Made by a program: the position numbers and the translations under genes. A DNA stretch of 48,253 bases from a virus (Duplodnaviria > Heunggongvirae > Uroviricota > Caudoviricetes): the IMG/VR virus record IMGVR_UViG_2531839665_000024; one strand, given 5' to 3'. Positions 4,109 through 12,503 of the stretch are shown piece by piece. The stretch's first letter is position 1. Each line of letters opens with the position of its first letter. The notes below the pieces were generated by a model. That model was given only the letters and a program-made list of their open reading frames with translations, had not been told where the DNA came from and ran no database searches.

Positions 4109-4405
4109 TTATACCTCTGAATCAATATCAACCTGGTGGTGAGCAATGGTTTCAACCATGTACCGGATGTGTTCTGCCATGCGCTCCTGAAACTCAACAT
4201 CGTCATCAAACGCACGGGTAATGGCTTTTTTGCTGGCCCCGTGGCGTTGCAAATGATCGATGCATAGCGATTCAAACAGGTGCTGGGGCAGGCCTTTTTC
4301 CATGTCGTCTGCCAGTTCTGCCTCTTTCTCTTCACGGGCGATCTGCTGGTAGTGACGCGCCCAGCTCTGAGCCTCAAGACGATCCTGAATGTAATAAGCG
4401 TTCAT
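4109..4405 (-). CDS. gam: Gam, RecBCD inhibitor (98-aa form)
   Basis: [21 protein letters not shown]... matches lambda Gam short form. Confidence 0.9.
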
Positions 4406-4480
4406 GGCTGAACTCCTGAAAATGGCTGTGAAAAAATCGCCCGCGGAATGCCAGGCTGATTCGGAAAACAGGAAAGGGGA

Positions 4481-4771
4481 TTAGTGATTCAGACCGTTGC
4501 CGCGTCCGTCGAGAAAAACTTCCACGAGCAAGTCACGGGTATAAGTGCGCTCAATGCCGCGATGCAGATAAAGTCGTCCGCGTAAATTAGCTGATGCAGT
4601 CCAGGTACCATCTTTGCGTTTGACCAGCATTCCTAGCATGACCGCACCGCGATTAACGGTCTGCGTTCCGTAATGTTGATGAACCATAAAAACTCCTGCC
4701 CGTAAGCTGGGCTGCTGAACATATAAAGACTTCTGCGCGTATTCAGGCGGTGGATGGCCGCCGGTTGTCAT
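4481..4771 (-). CDS. Hypothetical protein in the kil/cIII position of the early-left operon
   Basis: 96-aa ORF (possibly 68 aa from internal Met); does not resemble lambda Kil or CIII as far as I can recall. Confidence 0.35.
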   Translation of the reverse strand: MTTGGHPPPEYAQKSLYVQQPSLRAGVFMVHQHYGTQTVNRGAVMLGMLVKRKDGTWTASANLRGRLYLHRGIERTYTRDLLVEVFLDGRGNGLNH

Positions 4772-4964
4772 AACTAAGCCGCCTCGTTGAAGCGACTAAG
4801 GTATGAAATGTTGAGTTGATTTCAGCTGGTCACACCGACGTTCACGCGTCCGTTTCATCCCTCGCACTCCCCGAAGCCTGCTGAAATTCAAGCTGCGGAT
4901 CTAAGCGGTCATCGCAACGGTGAATCAGGTGGTTGCCGTATCGTTGTGTTGTTGCGATATGGTG

Positions 4965-5010
4965 ATAATAGCTATTGCTATTGGTGATATCAATACTTAT
5001 TGCTATTAGT
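4965..5010. promoter_or_regulatory. Putative OL operator region (repeated TTGCTATT motifs, AATAGCTATT palindrome)
   Basis: TTGCTATT at 4975-4982 and 5000-5007 plus palindrome 4967-4976; the same 8-mer recurs twice in the cI-cro intergenic region. Confidence 0.35.
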
Positions 5011-5127
5011 TGATGTGTTTTGATATTAAATGTTTGATAGCAAAAAGAATTAATTTTGTGACTTGCATCGCATAGCGATAACTGAAGTGAGGTCGTGGTG
5101 GTTTTTTGAACGGTGTGTGATGAGGGG

Positions 5128-5161
5128 AGGGCAAAAGAAAACCCGGCACGGTGGCCGGGTT
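5128..5161 (-). terminator. Rho-independent terminator closing the cI-distal operon
   Basis: Minus-strand hairpin CCCGGC-N6-GCCGGG (plus 5142-5159) followed by a U-run (TTTTCTTTTG), immediately after the stop of the 149-aa membrane protein gene. Confidence 0.55.
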
Positions 5162-5609
5162 ATTGTTCTTGATTGATCTTATCGAAGATATCATGACTTA
5201 ATTTTTGCACATTTAGGAAATTTACTATGAAGAAGACAATTGCGTAAATTATTAATGTGAAAAAAAGTATTGAAGGAGAGAATTTTAGTATCAGGGATTT
5301 AAATTCAAAGCTGAACTCATACTCTTTTAAATATTCACTAAGCACAAGGCATAAAGTAGAAAGAGTGAAAAAGCGCAAAAAAGAATTTCGTATAGATACC
5401 AATTCTTTTCTGATAACTTTAACATAATTAATGTTTTTAATGCCAGACATGTTAAAAGTTACAATCAACCCTAACCCGATAGAAAACATTATGCCACAGA
5501 CAGAATACAATGTAGAAATCAAAAACTGATCAGGCCTCCAAGCTAAAAATGATGGAAGCCCGATAGTAATTATCAGAACAATTAGCAAGCTAGCTATTTG
5601 TCGCTTCAT
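5160..5609 (-). CDS. Small integral membrane protein, about four predicted TM helices (RexB-position, RexB-like topology)
   Basis: 149-aa ORF in about 30 percent GC DNA; hydrophobic segments IASLLIVLIITIGLPSFLAW, ISTLYSVCGIMFSIGLGLIVTF, FLRFFTLSTLCLVL, ILFFTLIIYAIVFFIVNFL; start overlaps the upstream gene by 20 nt. Confidence 0.6.
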   Translation of the reverse strand: MKRQIASLLIVLIITIGLPSFLAWRPDQFLISTLYSVCGIMFSIGLGLIVTFNMSGIKNINYVKVIRKELVSIRNSFLRFFTLSTLCLVLSEYLKEYEFSFEFKSLILKFSPSILFFTLIIYAIVFFIVNFLNVQKLSHDIFDKINQEQ

Positions 5610-6615
5610 TTTCTATCTCTTTTAAATATCTGCTCATTTCTTGAAATACCTCTTGTTCTACAAGCTTGCCTGAATCAGTAACCTCAATTGTTACATTTTT
5701 AATCTTAAGAAGATCTTTGCCTTTTATTTCTGAGCGACCATCACTTCGTTTGAATACAATGTTATCAAGATCACTAACAGGTTTTAATGTTGCACTTAAT
5801 AGTTTAGCATAACTATCTTCATCCATGCTCCTTGGTTTACTAAACTTTATCAACAGTTCAGCTGATACTATTTGATTGTCAATTATTTCTTTTAGATTTG
5901 GGAAATTTGGTACAGCTGATTTCAATGCATTTAAAACAGCGTGTGAAAGTTTTATTTTTGTATTTTTTTCTTCAATTTCTGATGGTGGCGATTTCATATC
6001 GGATGACTGAACCAATACTTCTTTTGGAAGAGGAGATGGATCTCTCACAGAAATTGATTTTATATCCTTAAGCTGAACTTTATTACCTTTAACAATCATC
6101 GGTGTGAATTCAATCATTTCATTCCCAACCAGCCAGCGTATATAAGTTTGTAGAGATGATATAGTCCTATTCATCTGCAGATTGGTAACTAAATAATTAT
6201 CACTTATACAGAAGTAGAAATGGTTTTTGCATACGACCTCTGTATCAATGTCAGCATTATGGAGATCACTAATTGTAAATGATTTTTTGTTAAAAAGTTG
6301 ATCGGGAATCTTTTCAACTCCCTCGCTTGGGGCAATTCTAACCATTGTACAAAAAACAGAATTACTGTTGTCTGATGTCTGATAGAACGATATCAAATCT
6401 TGTTCTTGCCTAAGATCGTCAGAGTTTAAAACCATGCAACGTTCTTTTACGGTAGATGAGTCAACTAGCTTTTGTAATAAAAGCTTTTTCGCGGGGCTAG
6501 ATTTTTCTGTTAGATTATTGTTTTCTATCTTAAAAGCTCTTAATTTCACTTGTTTAGGTTTATTATGTTTTTTATTTACAGAGCTGCTATTTTCACTATT
6601 CATAGAATCAACCAT
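5590..6615 (-). CDS. Uncharacterised 341-aa soluble protein (RexA-position); candidate sensor/effector of a phage-exclusion system
   Basis: 1026-nt ORF in AT-rich DNA (a long ORF is statistically unlikely by chance in AT-rich sequence); directly downstream of cI on the same strand; no recognisable family. Confidence 0.6.
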   Translation of the reverse strand: MVDSMNSENSSSVNKKHNKPKQVKLRAFKIENNNLTEKSSPAKKLLLQKLVDSSTVKERCMVLNSDDLRQEQDLISFYQTSDNSNSVFCTMVRIAPSEGVEKIPDQLFNKKSFTISDLHNADIDTEVVCKNHFYFCISDNYLVTNLQMNRTISSLQTYIRWLVGNEMIEFTPMIVKGNKVQLKDIKSISVRDPSPLPKEVLVQSSDMKSPPSEIEEKNTKIKLSHAVLNALKSAVPNFPNLKEIIDNQIVSAELLIKFSKPRSMDEDSYAKLLSATLKPVSDLDNIVFKRSDGRSEIKGKDLLKIKNVTIEVTDSGKLVEQEVFQEMSRYLKEIENEATNS

Positions 6616-6708
6616 TGATTATGTGTAGTTTTATAATGTAGTAAGCATCAAGTATTTTTATAATTTGAGTTTGGTTTATCACACAAACATTTAAACCAAC
6701 TTGCTAAG

Positions 6709-7437
6709 TCATCCATGCTTTCTGTATGTCTGCGGCATGCTCCCAATAACTTTCCCGAAGATAAACACCCGGTTCATCTCGTCTTTCTCGATCGGGTCCC
6801 ACGGTGAGTAGCTCTTGTTATCAGAGATAACCAGCAGCTTATCCTTCATCATTTGCAGGCGCTTTACATGGGCTGTGTCGTCATACAGAAACGCATAGAT
6901 ACCATCACCGTCGAAAGATTTAACCGTGATATCAACGAACAGAAGATCACCTGGTTCGATCGTTCCTGACATGCTGTCACCACGCACGTTAATGATGCGG
7001 ATATTTTCCGCCTTCCTGCCATCGAACATGTGACGAGCATCGTCAAACGAGTACTCAACCGAGCGTAGAACTTCTACAAACTCACGGTTGATTACACCCG
7101 GCCCGGCACTGACTTCTATATCAAGAACGTCAATCTTGAAGTATTTTGAATGGCTGACAGCAGGCTTCCCTGATTGTTGACCGTCATTTCTCATCGGGCC
7201 TATGCCTGATGAGAGCCATTCTGTTCGAACACCCAATGCATTAGCTATTTCAACAATTTTTGTTGAGCCGCGCGCGTTGCCGCTTGTCAGTCTCCAGATT
7301 GTGGGTTGAGCTACGCCAGACGCCTTTGCAAGAGCGCCTTGAGACATTCCAGATTGTTCCATCGCTAGGTTTAAGCGATCAGCAAGAGTTTCTTTTTTCA
7401 TAAGTTTTAATTTATACGCTTGCGTATTGATGGTCAA
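6709..7437 (-). CDS. cI: CI-like prophage repressor with N-terminal HTH and C-terminal S24 (LexA-like) autopeptidase domain
   Basis: HTH (MSQGALAKASGVAQPTIWRL), Ala-Gly cleavage-site candidate (VSAGPG), GDSM serine and downstream lysine of S24 fold; annotated ORF begins at TTG, true start could be the internal ATG 36 nt downstream. Confidence 0.85.
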   Translation of the reverse strand: MTINTQAYKLKLMKKETLADRLNLAMEQSGMSQGALAKASGVAQPTIWRLTSGNARGSTKIVEIANALGVRTEWLSSGIGPMRNDGQQSGKPAVSHSKYFKIDVLDIEVSAGPGVINREFVEVLRSVEYSFDDARHMFDGRKAENIRIINVRGDSMSGTIEPGDLLFVDITVKSFDGDGIYAFLYDDTAHVKRLQMMKDKLLVISDNKSYSPWDPIEKDEMNRVFIFGKVIGSMPQTYRKHG

Positions 7438-7511
7438 AACACGTTTTGCTATTGCTTTGATTAATACGCATTGCTATTATTCATTCATTGCAATACCAAT
7501 AGGAATTGATA
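7438..7511. promoter_or_regulatory. Putative OR operator/divergent promoter region between cI and cro
   Basis: TTGCTATT at 7446-7453 and 7471-7478, palindrome ATTGCAAT at 7487-7494; divergent gene arrangement. Confidence 0.45.
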
Positions 7512-10389: not shown

Positions 10390-10722
10390 ATGAACCCTTA
10401 TATTTATCTTGGTGGTGCAATACTTGCAGAGGTCATTGGTACAACCTTAATGAAGTTTTCAGAAGGTTTTACACGGTTATGGCCATCTGTTGGTACAATT
10501 ATTTGTTATTGTGCATCATTCTGGTTATTAGCTCAGACGCTGGCTTATATTCCTACAGGGATTGCTTATGCTATCTGGTCAGGAGTCGGTATTGTCCTGA
10601 TTAGCTTACTGTCATGGGGATTTTTCGGCCAACGGCTGGACCTGCCAGCCATTATAGGCATGATGTTGATTTGTGCCGGTGTGTTGGTTATTAATTTATT
10701 GTCACGAAGCACACCACATTAA
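10390..10722 (+). CDS. emrE: EmrE small multidrug resistance (SMR) efflux transporter
   Basis: 110-aa four-TM protein MNPYIYLGGAILAEVIGTTLMKFSEGFTRLWPSVG... with conserved Glu14; matches E. coli EmrE, a known DLP12 cargo gene. Confidence 0.9.
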   Translation: MNPYIYLGGAILAEVIGTTLMKFSEGFTRLWPSVGTIICYCASFWLLAQTLAYIPTGIAYAIWSGVGIVLISLLSWGFFGQRLDLPAIIGMMLICAGVLVINLLSRSTPH

Positions 10723-10752
10723 AATAATTTGTTTCTAAACGACTAAAATATG

Positions 10753-10793
10753 GAGGCTCTTATATTTATATGAGCCTCGTTTTATGCTTTTTG
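10753..10793 (+). terminator. Rho-independent terminator downstream of emrE
   Basis: Hairpin GAGGCTC-N12-GAGCCTC followed by a T-rich tract (GTTTTATGCTTTTTG). Confidence 0.6.
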
Positions 10794-10976
10794 TTAATGT
10801 CTTTATTTTTTATGTATTCTTTTGTGCTTTCAAGATTATGGCGTAAGAAAATTGCAATACGATTATTGTTGTATATTCAAGATAATGTGACCTTAATTGT
10901 CTTTTTAAATAAAAATTAAACAAAAATTATATCCCACCACTAAGGTTTATAAAAGCATACGTTAGCAGGTGTCACC

Positions 10977-12503
10977 ATGAAAAAAGCCATAGCATATATG
11001 CGATTTTCATCACCAGGTCAGATGTCTGGCGACTCATTAAACCGACAGAGAAGACTTATTGCTGAATGGTTAAAGGTAAATAGTGATTATTATCTTGATA
11101 CCATAACATATGAAGATTTAGGATTAAGTGCATTCAAAGGAAAGCATGCACAATCAGGAGCTTTTTCGGAATTTTTAGATGCTATAGAGCATGGTTATAT
11201 ATTGCCAGGAACTACATTGTTAGTTGAAAGTCTGGACAGACTTTCAAGAGAAAAAGTCGGTGAAGCGATTGAACGTCTGAAATTGATTTTGAATCACGGT
11301 ATTGATGTTATAACTCTTTGCGACAATACAGTCTATAATATTGACTCTTTGAATGAGCCATATTCATTAATAAAAGCCATACTTATAGCACAAAGGGCAA
11401 ATGAAGAAAGCGAGATAAAGTCAAGTCGGGTTAAATTATCATGGAAGAAAAAACGGCAGGATGCACTGGAATCAGGTACGATTATGACGGCGTCTTGTCC
11501 GAGATGGCTCTCCTTAGATGACAAAAGAACGGCTTTTGTTCCAGACCCCGACAGGGTGAAAACTATTGAGCTAATTTTTAAACTCAGGATGGAAAGGCGC
11601 TCATTGAATGCAATAGCCAAGTATTTAAATGATCATGCTGTAAAGAATTTCTCAGGAAAAGAAAGTGCATGGGGACCTTCTGTAATTGAAAAATTATTAG
11701 CGAATAAAGCTCTGATAGGTATATGCGTACCTTCATATCGTGCAAGAGGGAAAGGGATAAGTGAAATCGCTGGCTATTATCCCAGAGTCATATCAGATGA
11801 TTTGTTTTACGCTGTACAGGAAATTCGGTTGGCACCTTTTGGTATTAGCAATAGTAGCAAGAATCCTATGCTAATAAATCTACTTCGAACAGTTATGAAG
11901 TGTGAGGCTTGTGGTAATACCATGATTGTTCATGCGGTATCTGGAAGTTTGCATGGCTATTATGTTTGTCCGATGAGAAGATTACATCGATGTGACAGGC
12001 CATCAATAAAAAGAGATTTGGTTGATTATAATATCATTAATGAATTGCTTTTTAATTGTAGCAAAATTCAACCAGTTGAAAACAAGAAAGATGCTAATGA
12101 AACTTTAGAGTTAAAAATTATTGAGCTTCAGATGAAAATTAATAATTTAATCGTTGCATTGTCTGTCGCGCCTGAAGTTACCGCTATAGCAGAGAAAATA
12201 AGACTATTAGATAAGGAATTACGAAGGGCTTCGGTATCATTGAAAACTTTGAAGAGTAAAGGTGTAAATTCATTCAGTGATTTTTATGCTATTGACTTAA
12301 CCAGTAAAAATGGACGAGAGTTATGCCGTACACTTGCCTATAAAACATTCGAAAAAATCATAATTAATACGGATAATAAAACCTGTGATATCTATTTTAT
12401 GAATGGCATTGTTTTTAAACACTATCCTTTAATGAAAGTAATATCCGCCCAGCAGGCGATAAGTGCTCTCAAATATATGGTTGATGGTGAGATTTATTTC
12501 TAA
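10977..12503 (+). CDS. ybcK: Large serine recombinase family protein
   Basis: 508-aa ORF with N-terminal resolvase-like catalytic domain (AIAYMRFSSPGQ...SLNRQ) and Cys-rich recombinase/zinc-ribbon region; matches DLP12 YbcK from memory; low-GC gene. Confidence 0.8.
   Translation: MKKAIAYMRFSSPGQMSGDSLNRQRRLIAEWLKVNSDYYLDTITYEDLGLSAFKGKHAQSGAFSEFLDAIEHGYILPGTTLLVESLDRLSREKVGEAIERLKLILNHGIDVITLCDNTVYNIDSLNEPYSLIKAILIAQRANEESEIKSSRVKLSWKKKRQDALESGTIMTASCPRWLSLDDKRTAFVPDPDRVKTIELIFKLRMERRSLNAIAKYLNDHAVKNFSGKESAWGPSVIEKLLANKALIGICVPSYRARGKGISEIAGYYPRVISDDLFYAVQEIRLAPFGISNSSKNPMLINLLRTVMKCEACGNTMIVHAVSGSLHGYYVCPMRRLHRCDRPSIKRDLVDYNIINELLFNCSKIQPVENKKDANETLELKIIELQMKINNLIVALSVAPEVTAIAEKIRLLDKELRRASVSLKTLKSKGVNSFSDFYAIDLTSKNGRELCRTLAYKTFEKIIINTDNKTCDIYFMNGIVFKHYPLMKVISAQQAISALKYMVDGEIYF

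Follow-up and report, generated by a model that had tools for sequence, protein, structure and literature searches.

A candidate divergent RexAB-type phage-exclusion module in the immunity region of a lambdoid phage

What is the function of an AT-rich pair of genes that lies between the cI-type repressor gene and the OL operator of a lambdoid phage, in the place where phage lambda carries rexA and rexB? The question was raised by a 48,253-nucleotide stretch of DNA from a virus of the class Caudoviricetes (IMG/VR record IMGVR_UViG_2531839665_000024; the whole stretch is called the window here). The pair, named genes A and B in this study, lies within positions 5128–6708. An initial annotation of this DNA had put the pair forward as a candidate undescribed defence system. 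Our analysis indicates instead that the cassette is probably (roughly 60%) a very divergent member of a kind that has a precedent in RexABpp of Pseudomonas putida (PMC12894663), namely a RexAB-type two-component phage-exclusion (abortive-infection) module with a presumed function in defence. We make this assignment because of the predicted fold of protein A, the form of protein B, the linkage of the two genes, their position, their mobility, and the RexABpp precedent. The cassette and its closest surroundings consist of the following features:

5590–6615, minus strand: gene A, an open reading frame (ORF) for a soluble protein of 341 amino acids (aa)
5160–5609, minus strand: gene B, an ORF for a putative inner-membrane protein of 149 aa with three to four transmembrane helices
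5130–5161, minus strand: an intrinsic terminator with a G+C-rich stem (5140–5161) and a T-run to about 5130, adjoining the stop codon of gene B
6616–6708, minus strand: the 93-bp spacer between cI and gene A, with no terminator-like site
6709–7437, minus strand: the cI-type repressor gene (helix-turn-helix (HTH) and S24 peptidase; Pfam PF00717 and PF01381), directly upstream of gene A

Genes A and B are co-oriented on the minus strand at the coordinates given by the initial annotation, and the 20-nt overlap, in which the start of gene B lies within the end of gene A, also agreed with it. An AAGAG Shine-Dalgarno-like sequence for gene B sits inside gene A. The ATG at 6603 (337 aa) is preferred as the start of gene A by homolog alignments and by the Prokaryotic Genome Annotation Pipeline (PGAP), and an obvious Shine-Dalgarno sequence is absent at both this ATG and the start of the 5590–6615 ORF. 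With a GC content of 0.318, the cassette lies below both cI (0.468) and the window as a whole (0.507), so the striking AT-richness first noticed was borne out. The same is true of the composition of protein A, which is hydrophilic (grand average of hydropathy, GRAVY, −0.47) and rich in Ser (11.7%), Lys (10.9%), and Asn (7.9%). An Rfam search showed no RNA family in or near the cassette.

Judged from the sequences, A and B are genuine genes and not chance ORFs, because dozens to hundreds of full-length homologs exist and their dN/dS ratios (nonsynonymous to synonymous substitution rates) are low. Homologs of gene A formed 64 clusters at 90% identity, and an exhaustive hidden Markov model (HMM) search gave 424 representatives at 50% identity, distributed over at least six phyla. 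Homologs of gene B formed 56 clusters. Comparisons among A/B homologs gave dN values of 0.18–0.49 with saturated synonymous sites, and dN/dS was 0.15–0.25 where it could be computed. The two reading frames are uninterrupted, and purifying selection acts on them in hosts from E. coli to Bacteroidota.

The structure of protein A was modeled with AlphaFold2 from a 39-sequence alignment without templates (predicted local distance difference test, pLDDT, 78; predicted template-modelling score, pTM, 0.73). The top Foldseek match for the model among 350,542 PDB chains was lambda RexA (8TWQ_B; E 1.4e-3, probability 0.98). The next matches, with scores below that of RexA, were IML3, CHL4, CENP-N/L chains, E. 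coli RdgC, and 3oh8; of these, IML3, CHL4, CENP-N, RdgC, and 3oh8 have been published as structural neighbours of RexA. The model begins with a disordered, Lys-rich N-terminus, followed by a globular part (about 20–190) with seven strands and flanking helices, a disordered linker (about 195–222) of variable length between homologs, and a C-terminal part (about 224–310) with four strands and four helices, and ends in a terminal helix (319–339). RexA has been described as having a split globular domain (1–139 plus 248–279) with a seven-stranded sheet, a dimerisation domain (143–234) with four strands and four helices, and a C-terminal helix alpha8. The order of secondary-structure elements in the model fits these domains, and at the fold level A is predicted to have a RexA/RdgC-like two-domain arrangement. 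The predicted fold of protein A is thus very probably that of RexA.

The two genes are tightly linked. Our locus survey comprised 21 loci from Enterobacterales, Orbaceae, Pasteurellaceae, Bacteroidota, Desulfovibrio, Deferribacterales, Alphaproteobacteria, and a Campylobacteraceae metagenome-assembled genome (MAG). A membrane-protein ORF of 131–161 aa followed gene A immediately at 20 of the 21 loci, abutting or overlapping it at 19, and the spacing from the A stop to the B start was −26 to +1 nt at most of them. The 21st locus, in the Campylobacteraceae MAG (JBKECC010000112.1; L019, 4221–5579), encodes an in-frame A-B fusion of 452 aa (protein P0156), residues 3–305 of which match A (E 3e-65) and residues 308–451 match B (profile E 1e-44). 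The fusion was seen once, in a MAG, and may be an artefact of assembly or of a frameshift. Directly upstream of the most distant B homologs, from Lachnospiraceae and an uncultured lineage, lies an A-family gene (HMM E 6e-91 and 3e-113). Overall, A and B co-occur at every locus examined, in at least six phyla, and every non-fused locus examined has the co-oriented order of a RexA-like gene followed by a membrane-protein gene.

The fold and the linkage bear on one alternative, in which A is an RdgC-like modulator of recombination or replication, or a membrane-tethered DNA-binding factor; the complex might, for instance, give superinfection exclusion by blocking injection of incoming DNA. RdgC and kinetochore proteins that bind DNA have the RexA fold too, A is anchored to the membrane in the fusion, and a Klebsiella locus lies beside an Imm_superinfect gene. 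However, no A member matched the Pfam model of RdgC (PF04381), RdgC is not the closest structural relative, and the slot and the partner architecture fit Rex and not RdgC. We know of no membrane partner of RdgC, which also counts against this alternative, and we consider it unlikely.

Protein B is close to lambda RexB in size and charge (149 aa, pI 9.36, and GRAVY 0.80 for B; 144 aa, pI 9.33, and GRAVY 0.98 for RexB; pI, isoelectric point). Its hydropathy profile showed three strongly hydrophobic helices (about 5–22, 28–50, and 112–133) and a weaker one (76–93), and its AlphaFold2 model (pLDDT 81.5) contains four long helices. The initial count of about four transmembrane helices is therefore reasonable but not certain: the model has four, while only three are strongly hydrophobic. 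Basic residues (Lys and Arg) are concentrated at the N-terminus and in the 51–75 loop. An N-in/C-in topology is predicted by the positive-inside rule and from the natural fusion, in which A directly precedes the N-terminus of B. A GIMFSIG motif is conserved in the second transmembrane helix, and GIMFS[IVL]G was present in 15 of the 20 B ORFs of the locus survey. A Foldseek search of B against BFVD gave the unnamed protein A0A6G5XUJ4 as the best match (probability 1.0, TM 0.51). We propose that B is a membrane effector.

Gene B is under-annotated. This was observed for the window (5160–5609), L002 (6157–6603), and L057 (4914–5369). In E. coli SaT040 an intact copy of the gene with 100% identity is left out by PGAP, and the GenBank record of Acinetobacter phage TCUAN1 gives only a 72-aa fragment of the gene.

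The position of the cassette was defined by the regulatory sites around it:

7409–7437, minus strand: a PRM-like promoter (TTGACC-17-TAAATT) that lies about 10 bp ahead of the probable start codon of cI
4965–5010, minus strand: the OL operator, in which a 19-nt repeat occurs twice, 25 bp apart, and overlaps a pL-like promoter
7438–7506, strand not assigned: the OR operator region, with the ATTGCTATT motif common to OL

The motif ATTGCTATT has just three exact copies in the 48 kb, two in OL (4974 and 4999) and one in OR (7470). Its presence at both OL and OR shows that the cassette and cI lie inside a genuine immunity region. The OL repeats at 4974 and 4999 and the terminator after gene B, within a few bases of where it had been placed, confirmed two further elements of the initial annotation. 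The pL-like promoter at OL (TTGATA-17-TATTAT) has 10/12 matches to the consensus. Translation of cI probably begins at the ATG at 7398 (229 aa), the start that PGAP gives for the SaT040 gene of identical length. The PRM-like promoter is the presumed source of a cI-A-B transcript in lysogens, transcription would read through from cI into A across the 93-bp spacer, and the terminator at 5130–5161, in the position of lambda tIMM, would end the unit. A promoter scan of this AT-rich DNA showed no internal promoter for B above chance, of the kind of lambda pLIT.

The −10 element of the PRM-like promoter ends about 10 bp before the likely cI ATG at 7398 (window 7396–7437). With so short a gap, the cI-A-B mRNA may be nearly leaderless, as far as a consensus match can suggest. 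The lambda PRM transcript is leaderless.

Other observations concern the leftward side of the immunity region. No N-like antiterminator gene was seen in the interval from pL to the kil/gam region (4400–4965). The leftward operon opens with an ORF (4481–4771; 96 aa, annotated as a 77-aa hypothetical protein) that had no Pfam match, and Rfam showed no RNA element at 4400–4965; Photorhabdus carriers of the cassette do have an N gene after it. The approximately 110 bp between OL and the terminator (5055–5161) are highly identical among PhiR68_2, PhiR34_1, and PhiR26_1 despite their differing operators. A 62-aa ORF (5006–5194, minus strand) that overlaps this conserved segment is probably spurious.

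The cassette is carried by a known phage. Region 5000–6800 is 99.9% identical to Escherichia phage PhiR68_2 (PV340576.1), a lambdoid temperate phage (the window coordinate equals the PV340576.1 coordinate minus 67), and both genes are labelled hypothetical protein in that record. PhiR68_2 belongs to the Laub-lab ECOR phage panel, and the SNIPE paper uses PhiR68.2 as a challenge phage. The record names ECOR13 as the host; ECOR13 is a natively susceptible indicator strain and here is probably the propagation strain, and the phage name suggests an origin in ECOR68.

Comparison with related phages showed that the content of the slot is exchanged. The flank homology with PhiR34_1 and PhiR26_1 covers the terminator stem, breaks off at about 5160, and starts again at about 6710, where cI ends. 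The slot between cI and the terminator is essentially empty in PhiR34_1 (L055, about 1613–1735) and contains an unrelated 126-aa "putative lipoprotein" gene in PhiR26_1 (L056, 1620–2000), which is possibly another cargo expressed in lysogens, with a role at the surface or in exclusion, for example. Mosaicism of the cI-to-N region is documented; this hotspot holds rexAB in lambda and bstA in BTP1. The cassette is best read as immunity-region cargo of a lambdoid phage, and the first assignment to a cargo slot held up. In all hosts examined the cassette is poorer in GC than the DNA on either side of it; in Desulfovibrio, for instance, the values are 0.31 and 0.62.

The order repressor, A, B was found in five unrelated temperate-phage lineages with non-orthologous repressors, always with the pair directly downstream of the repressor and co-oriented with it, as rexAB is in lambda:

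E. coli PhiR68.2: S24 cI repressor, then A and B
Salmonella prophage: 131-aa HTH repressor, with kilR, gam, and recT after the pair
Photorhabdus prophage: 134-aa HTH repressor, with N after the pair
Acinetobacter phage TCUAN1: LexA-like repressor, then A and B
Uncultured lineage: S24 repressor, then A and B

This placement beside the repressor in five lineages, together with the RexA fold of the A model, would also suit a pair that mainly modulates the lysis-lysogeny switch, with A binding DNA, CI, or Cro and B as an accessory. Published work on lambda RexA reports a second, RexB-independent activity of this kind. The location next to a repressor is not universal, since the pair also occurs in other elements and stand-alone. 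It was found without a nearby repressor between selA and an MFS gene on Pasteurella chromosomes, among the late genes of a Mu-like prophage in Halpernia, and in Klebsiella (L027–L029, 4867–7937) within an element with a DUF927 primase, SSB, and Phage_ASH, with the Imm_superinfect gene nearby, a setting that suggests cargo or a defence hotspot. It was likewise found in Lachnospiraceae contigs (L058/L059, 3063–7921), where the most distant pair found is flanked on one side by the gene of a 1,763-aa DUF87/TrwB-like protein and on the other by clustered genes for a Fic-domain protein, a metallophosphatase, and an AbiEii toxin; this setting looks like a defence island or a conjugative element. In addition, the strict co-occurrence of A and B and their fusion argue for the membrane protein being an integral part of how the pair works. 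A role confined mainly to the switch is therefore improbable.

The small, AT-rich, mobile two-gene operon with overlapping genes, found in many types of mobile element, could alternatively be an addiction module of the toxin–antitoxin (TA) type, in which a membrane-damaging toxin B is restrained or triggered by A and stabilises the element. The AbiEii TA toxin adjoins the pair at one locus, and an excess of RexA over RexB is toxic in Rex systems (PMC12894663). One strain, the clinical isolate E. coli CH4794 (NZ_CM166349.1; L062, about 1600–2370), carries a gene A knocked out by IS1, with a remnant coding sequence of 175 aa. However, a protein of about 340 aa with a conserved two-domain RexA fold is an atypical antitoxin, and a covalent A-B fusion is hard to square with an antitoxin of differing stability. 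We give this explanation a low likelihood; TA and abortive-infection functions overlap, so the distinction is partly a matter of labelling.

The IS1-disrupted copy also bears on whether the cassette is functionless hitch-hiking cargo, silenced or decaying in its host. The cassette is AT-rich and rare: it was present in 42 of 5,426 complete E. coli genomes and in 2 of 50,697 phage records. PGAP does not call gene B. On the other side, the intact ORFs and purifying selection from E. coli to Bacteroidota, the 100% conservation of gene B in SaT040, and the 99–99.9% identity of the cassette across unrelated E. coli isolates make a functionless cassette highly improbable. The E. coli copies always adjoin an S24/XRE repressor among the matches listed. 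A search of 72,556 plasmids showed no A homolog.

If the cassette is a RexAB-type module, it might act as follows. In the lysogen, A and B would be transcribed with cI from PRM, and the transcript would end at the tIMM-like terminator. Protein A would be a cytoplasmic dimeric sensor of the DNA of a superinfecting phage, or of a phage DNA-protein intermediate. Activated A would switch on B by direct contact, and B would form or open an ion-conducting pore, so that membrane potential and ATP collapse. The infected cell would be sacrificed and the infection aborted. Like lambda RexA, A may have an additional effect on the CI/Cro switch.

Several results weigh against the RexAB-type reading, most of them at the sequence level. 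The RexA model PF15969 gave no match at E ≤ 10 for 132 A-family members including the window protein, and alignment of the A family with RexA by hhalign gave a probability of 0.07–0.09%. For B, none of 33 family members matched the RexB model PF15968, there was no PADLOC RexB match, and hhalign against the RexB family gave 0.12%. All hhalign comparisons of A and B family profiles with RexA and with a 17-member RexB alignment lay at 0.07–0.5%. Profile searches against PDB sequences gave nothing significant; the best matches were a proteasome subunit (E 0.08) and a serotonin transporter (E 0.011), the latter probably due to a hydrophobic composition bias. Among the 50 BFVD matches listed for B no row was named RexB, the presence of RexB in this library being unverified. 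The resemblance of B to RexB is weak and consists of size, charge, and topology, with no homology detected, and the third transmembrane helix of B (76–93) is weakly hydrophobic. The promoter scan showed fewer promoter-like sites in the region than in shuffled sequence; as such sites are not above chance, the PRM-like consensus match carries little weight alone. The IS1 insertion in CH4794 is a possible natural inactivation of the sensor gene, and DNA of 32% GC may be silenced by H-NS in E. coli. DNA binding by RexA is reported not to be strictly required for exclusion, and the mechanism of RexAB itself is unsettled.

The Pfam and PADLOC negatives are meaningful because genuine lambda RexA and RexB were recognised by the same models: RexA matched PF15969 and PADLOC RexA at E 1e-97 and 9e-110, and RexA and RexB matched PF15969/PF15968 and PADLOC RexA/RexB at E 1e-61 or better. 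Neither A nor B had a credible match in Pfam, PADLOC-DB v2.0.0, PHROGs, or NCBIfam, and PADLOC gave 0 families at E ≤ 1. Weak matches to FCH, DUF4922, DctM, MnhB, and adenylate kinase were dismissed as far below the cut-offs. The only stretch ever aligned, A 249–298 with RexA 184–229, recurred in two comparisons and was not significant. A search of viral contigs for diverse RexA proteins returned only copies 76–100% identical to lambda RexA. The initial impression of no similarity in sequence to RexA, RexB, or any curated family thus agrees with the Pfam, PADLOC, PHROG, NCBIfam, and hhalign results. The link to Rex appeared in the structure search, which placed the fold of A closest to RexA, and not in the profile searches, which connected neither A nor B.

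RexAB is the oldest known abortive-infection system, and its mechanism of sensing and channel gating is still to be resolved. The A-B family is invisible to Pfam, PADLOC, PHROGs, and NCBIfam. If it is defensive, Rex-type immunity reaches well past the lambda-like and actinobacterial phages, annotation pipelines can take up two new models, and structural and mechanistic studies can draw on many diverse orthologs and on a sensor-effector fusion found in nature. The RexAB-type kind is already known; the A-B family itself, undescribed in the sources searched, is widespread and includes a fused form. As no new principle is involved, the value of the finding is incremental but real.

A bolder view can be offered tentatively, and we doubt it more than we favour it. 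The family may be a large, ancient, multi-phylum class of RexA-fold sensors with membrane effectors, of which lambda RexAB is a small derived enterobacterial branch, or a RexA-fold sensor may have independently recruited an effector that is not RexB. If this is true, the natural single-chain fusion shows a physical coupling by which sensor and effector work together as a unit, and the fusion proteins and diverse orthologs give cryo-electron microscopy a handle on the 60-year-old question of Rex sensing and its channel.

Two other features of the window were recorded. A second AT-rich island (10390–12503, GC about 0.32–0.39) lies downstream of ren. It encodes a small multidrug transporter of the SMR family (PF00893, E 2e-35) and a 508-aa large serine recombinase (Resolvase, Recombinase, Zn_ribbon_recom), neither of which had a PADLOC match; we take it to resemble the emrE-ybcK pair of prophage DLP12. 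The sole Rfam match at the gathering threshold in the window was IS009 (RF02111; 47333–47531, plus strand, 220.9 bits, full length).

Finally, the cassette was compared with known systems. No description or annotation of the A-B family was found in the databases and literature searched, and the text of Vassallo 2022 does not mention Rex. RdgC and IML3/CHL4 (CENP-L/CENP-N) score below RexA against A, have no known membrane partner, and belong to a different biological context. BstA of Salmonella phage BTP1 occupies the same slot downstream of the repressor, with a presumed shared repressor promoter, and acts by abortive infection; it differs in being an unrelated single protein with another mechanism. 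The Rex-like pairs of actinobacteriophages (Sbash gp30/31, CarolAnn, Butters, and Toast) are two-gene systems that often lie beside the immunity repressor. Their RexA-like proteins dimerise and bind DNA non-specifically, and several pairs exclude heterologous phages. Unlike the A-B family, they were found by Rex similarity at the BLAST level, and a tblastn search with A gave no actinophage match among the 50,697 phage records.

A close precedent for the divergence seen here is RexABpp of a P. putida prophage (PP_5643/PP_5644; Sci Rep 2026, PMC12894663), which combines a RexA-like protein with a partner of four transmembrane helices without detectable RexB homology. RexABpp was likewise assigned to its type from structural evidence, before any experiment. 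Experimentally, RexABpp defends, binds DNA non-specifically, and is toxic in a RexB-dependent way (PMC12894663). A clamp-like dimer of the RexA-like protein on DNA and a pore of five or six copies of the membrane partner are reported for it. RexApp was tied to RexA by HHpred at 98%, whereas A has no profile-level link.

Lambda RexA/RexB (PF15969 and PF15968; RexA PDB 8TWQ) occupies the same slot on the same strand, from cI to the terminator by OL, in the same order of a soluble protein followed by a basic membrane protein of about 145–150 aa. The spacing is cI–112 bp–rexA–15 bp–rexB–173 bp–OL3 in lambda and cI–93 bp–A–(20-nt overlap)–B–152 bp–OL here, so the genes overlap in the cassette and are separated by a gap in lambda. 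In both, the GC content is below that of the rest of the phage (0.41 for lambda rexAB, 0.32 for the cassette). The predicted fold of A is closest to RexA, yet neither A nor B shows detectable sequence similarity. A is about 60 residues longer than RexA, with a disordered linker of about 30 residues in place of the 3-residue hinge of RexA and, unlike RexA, a Lys-rich disordered N-terminus. B has its own GIMFSIG motif and no RexB homology. Unlike lambda RexAB, the A-B family extends over many phyla and includes a fused form.

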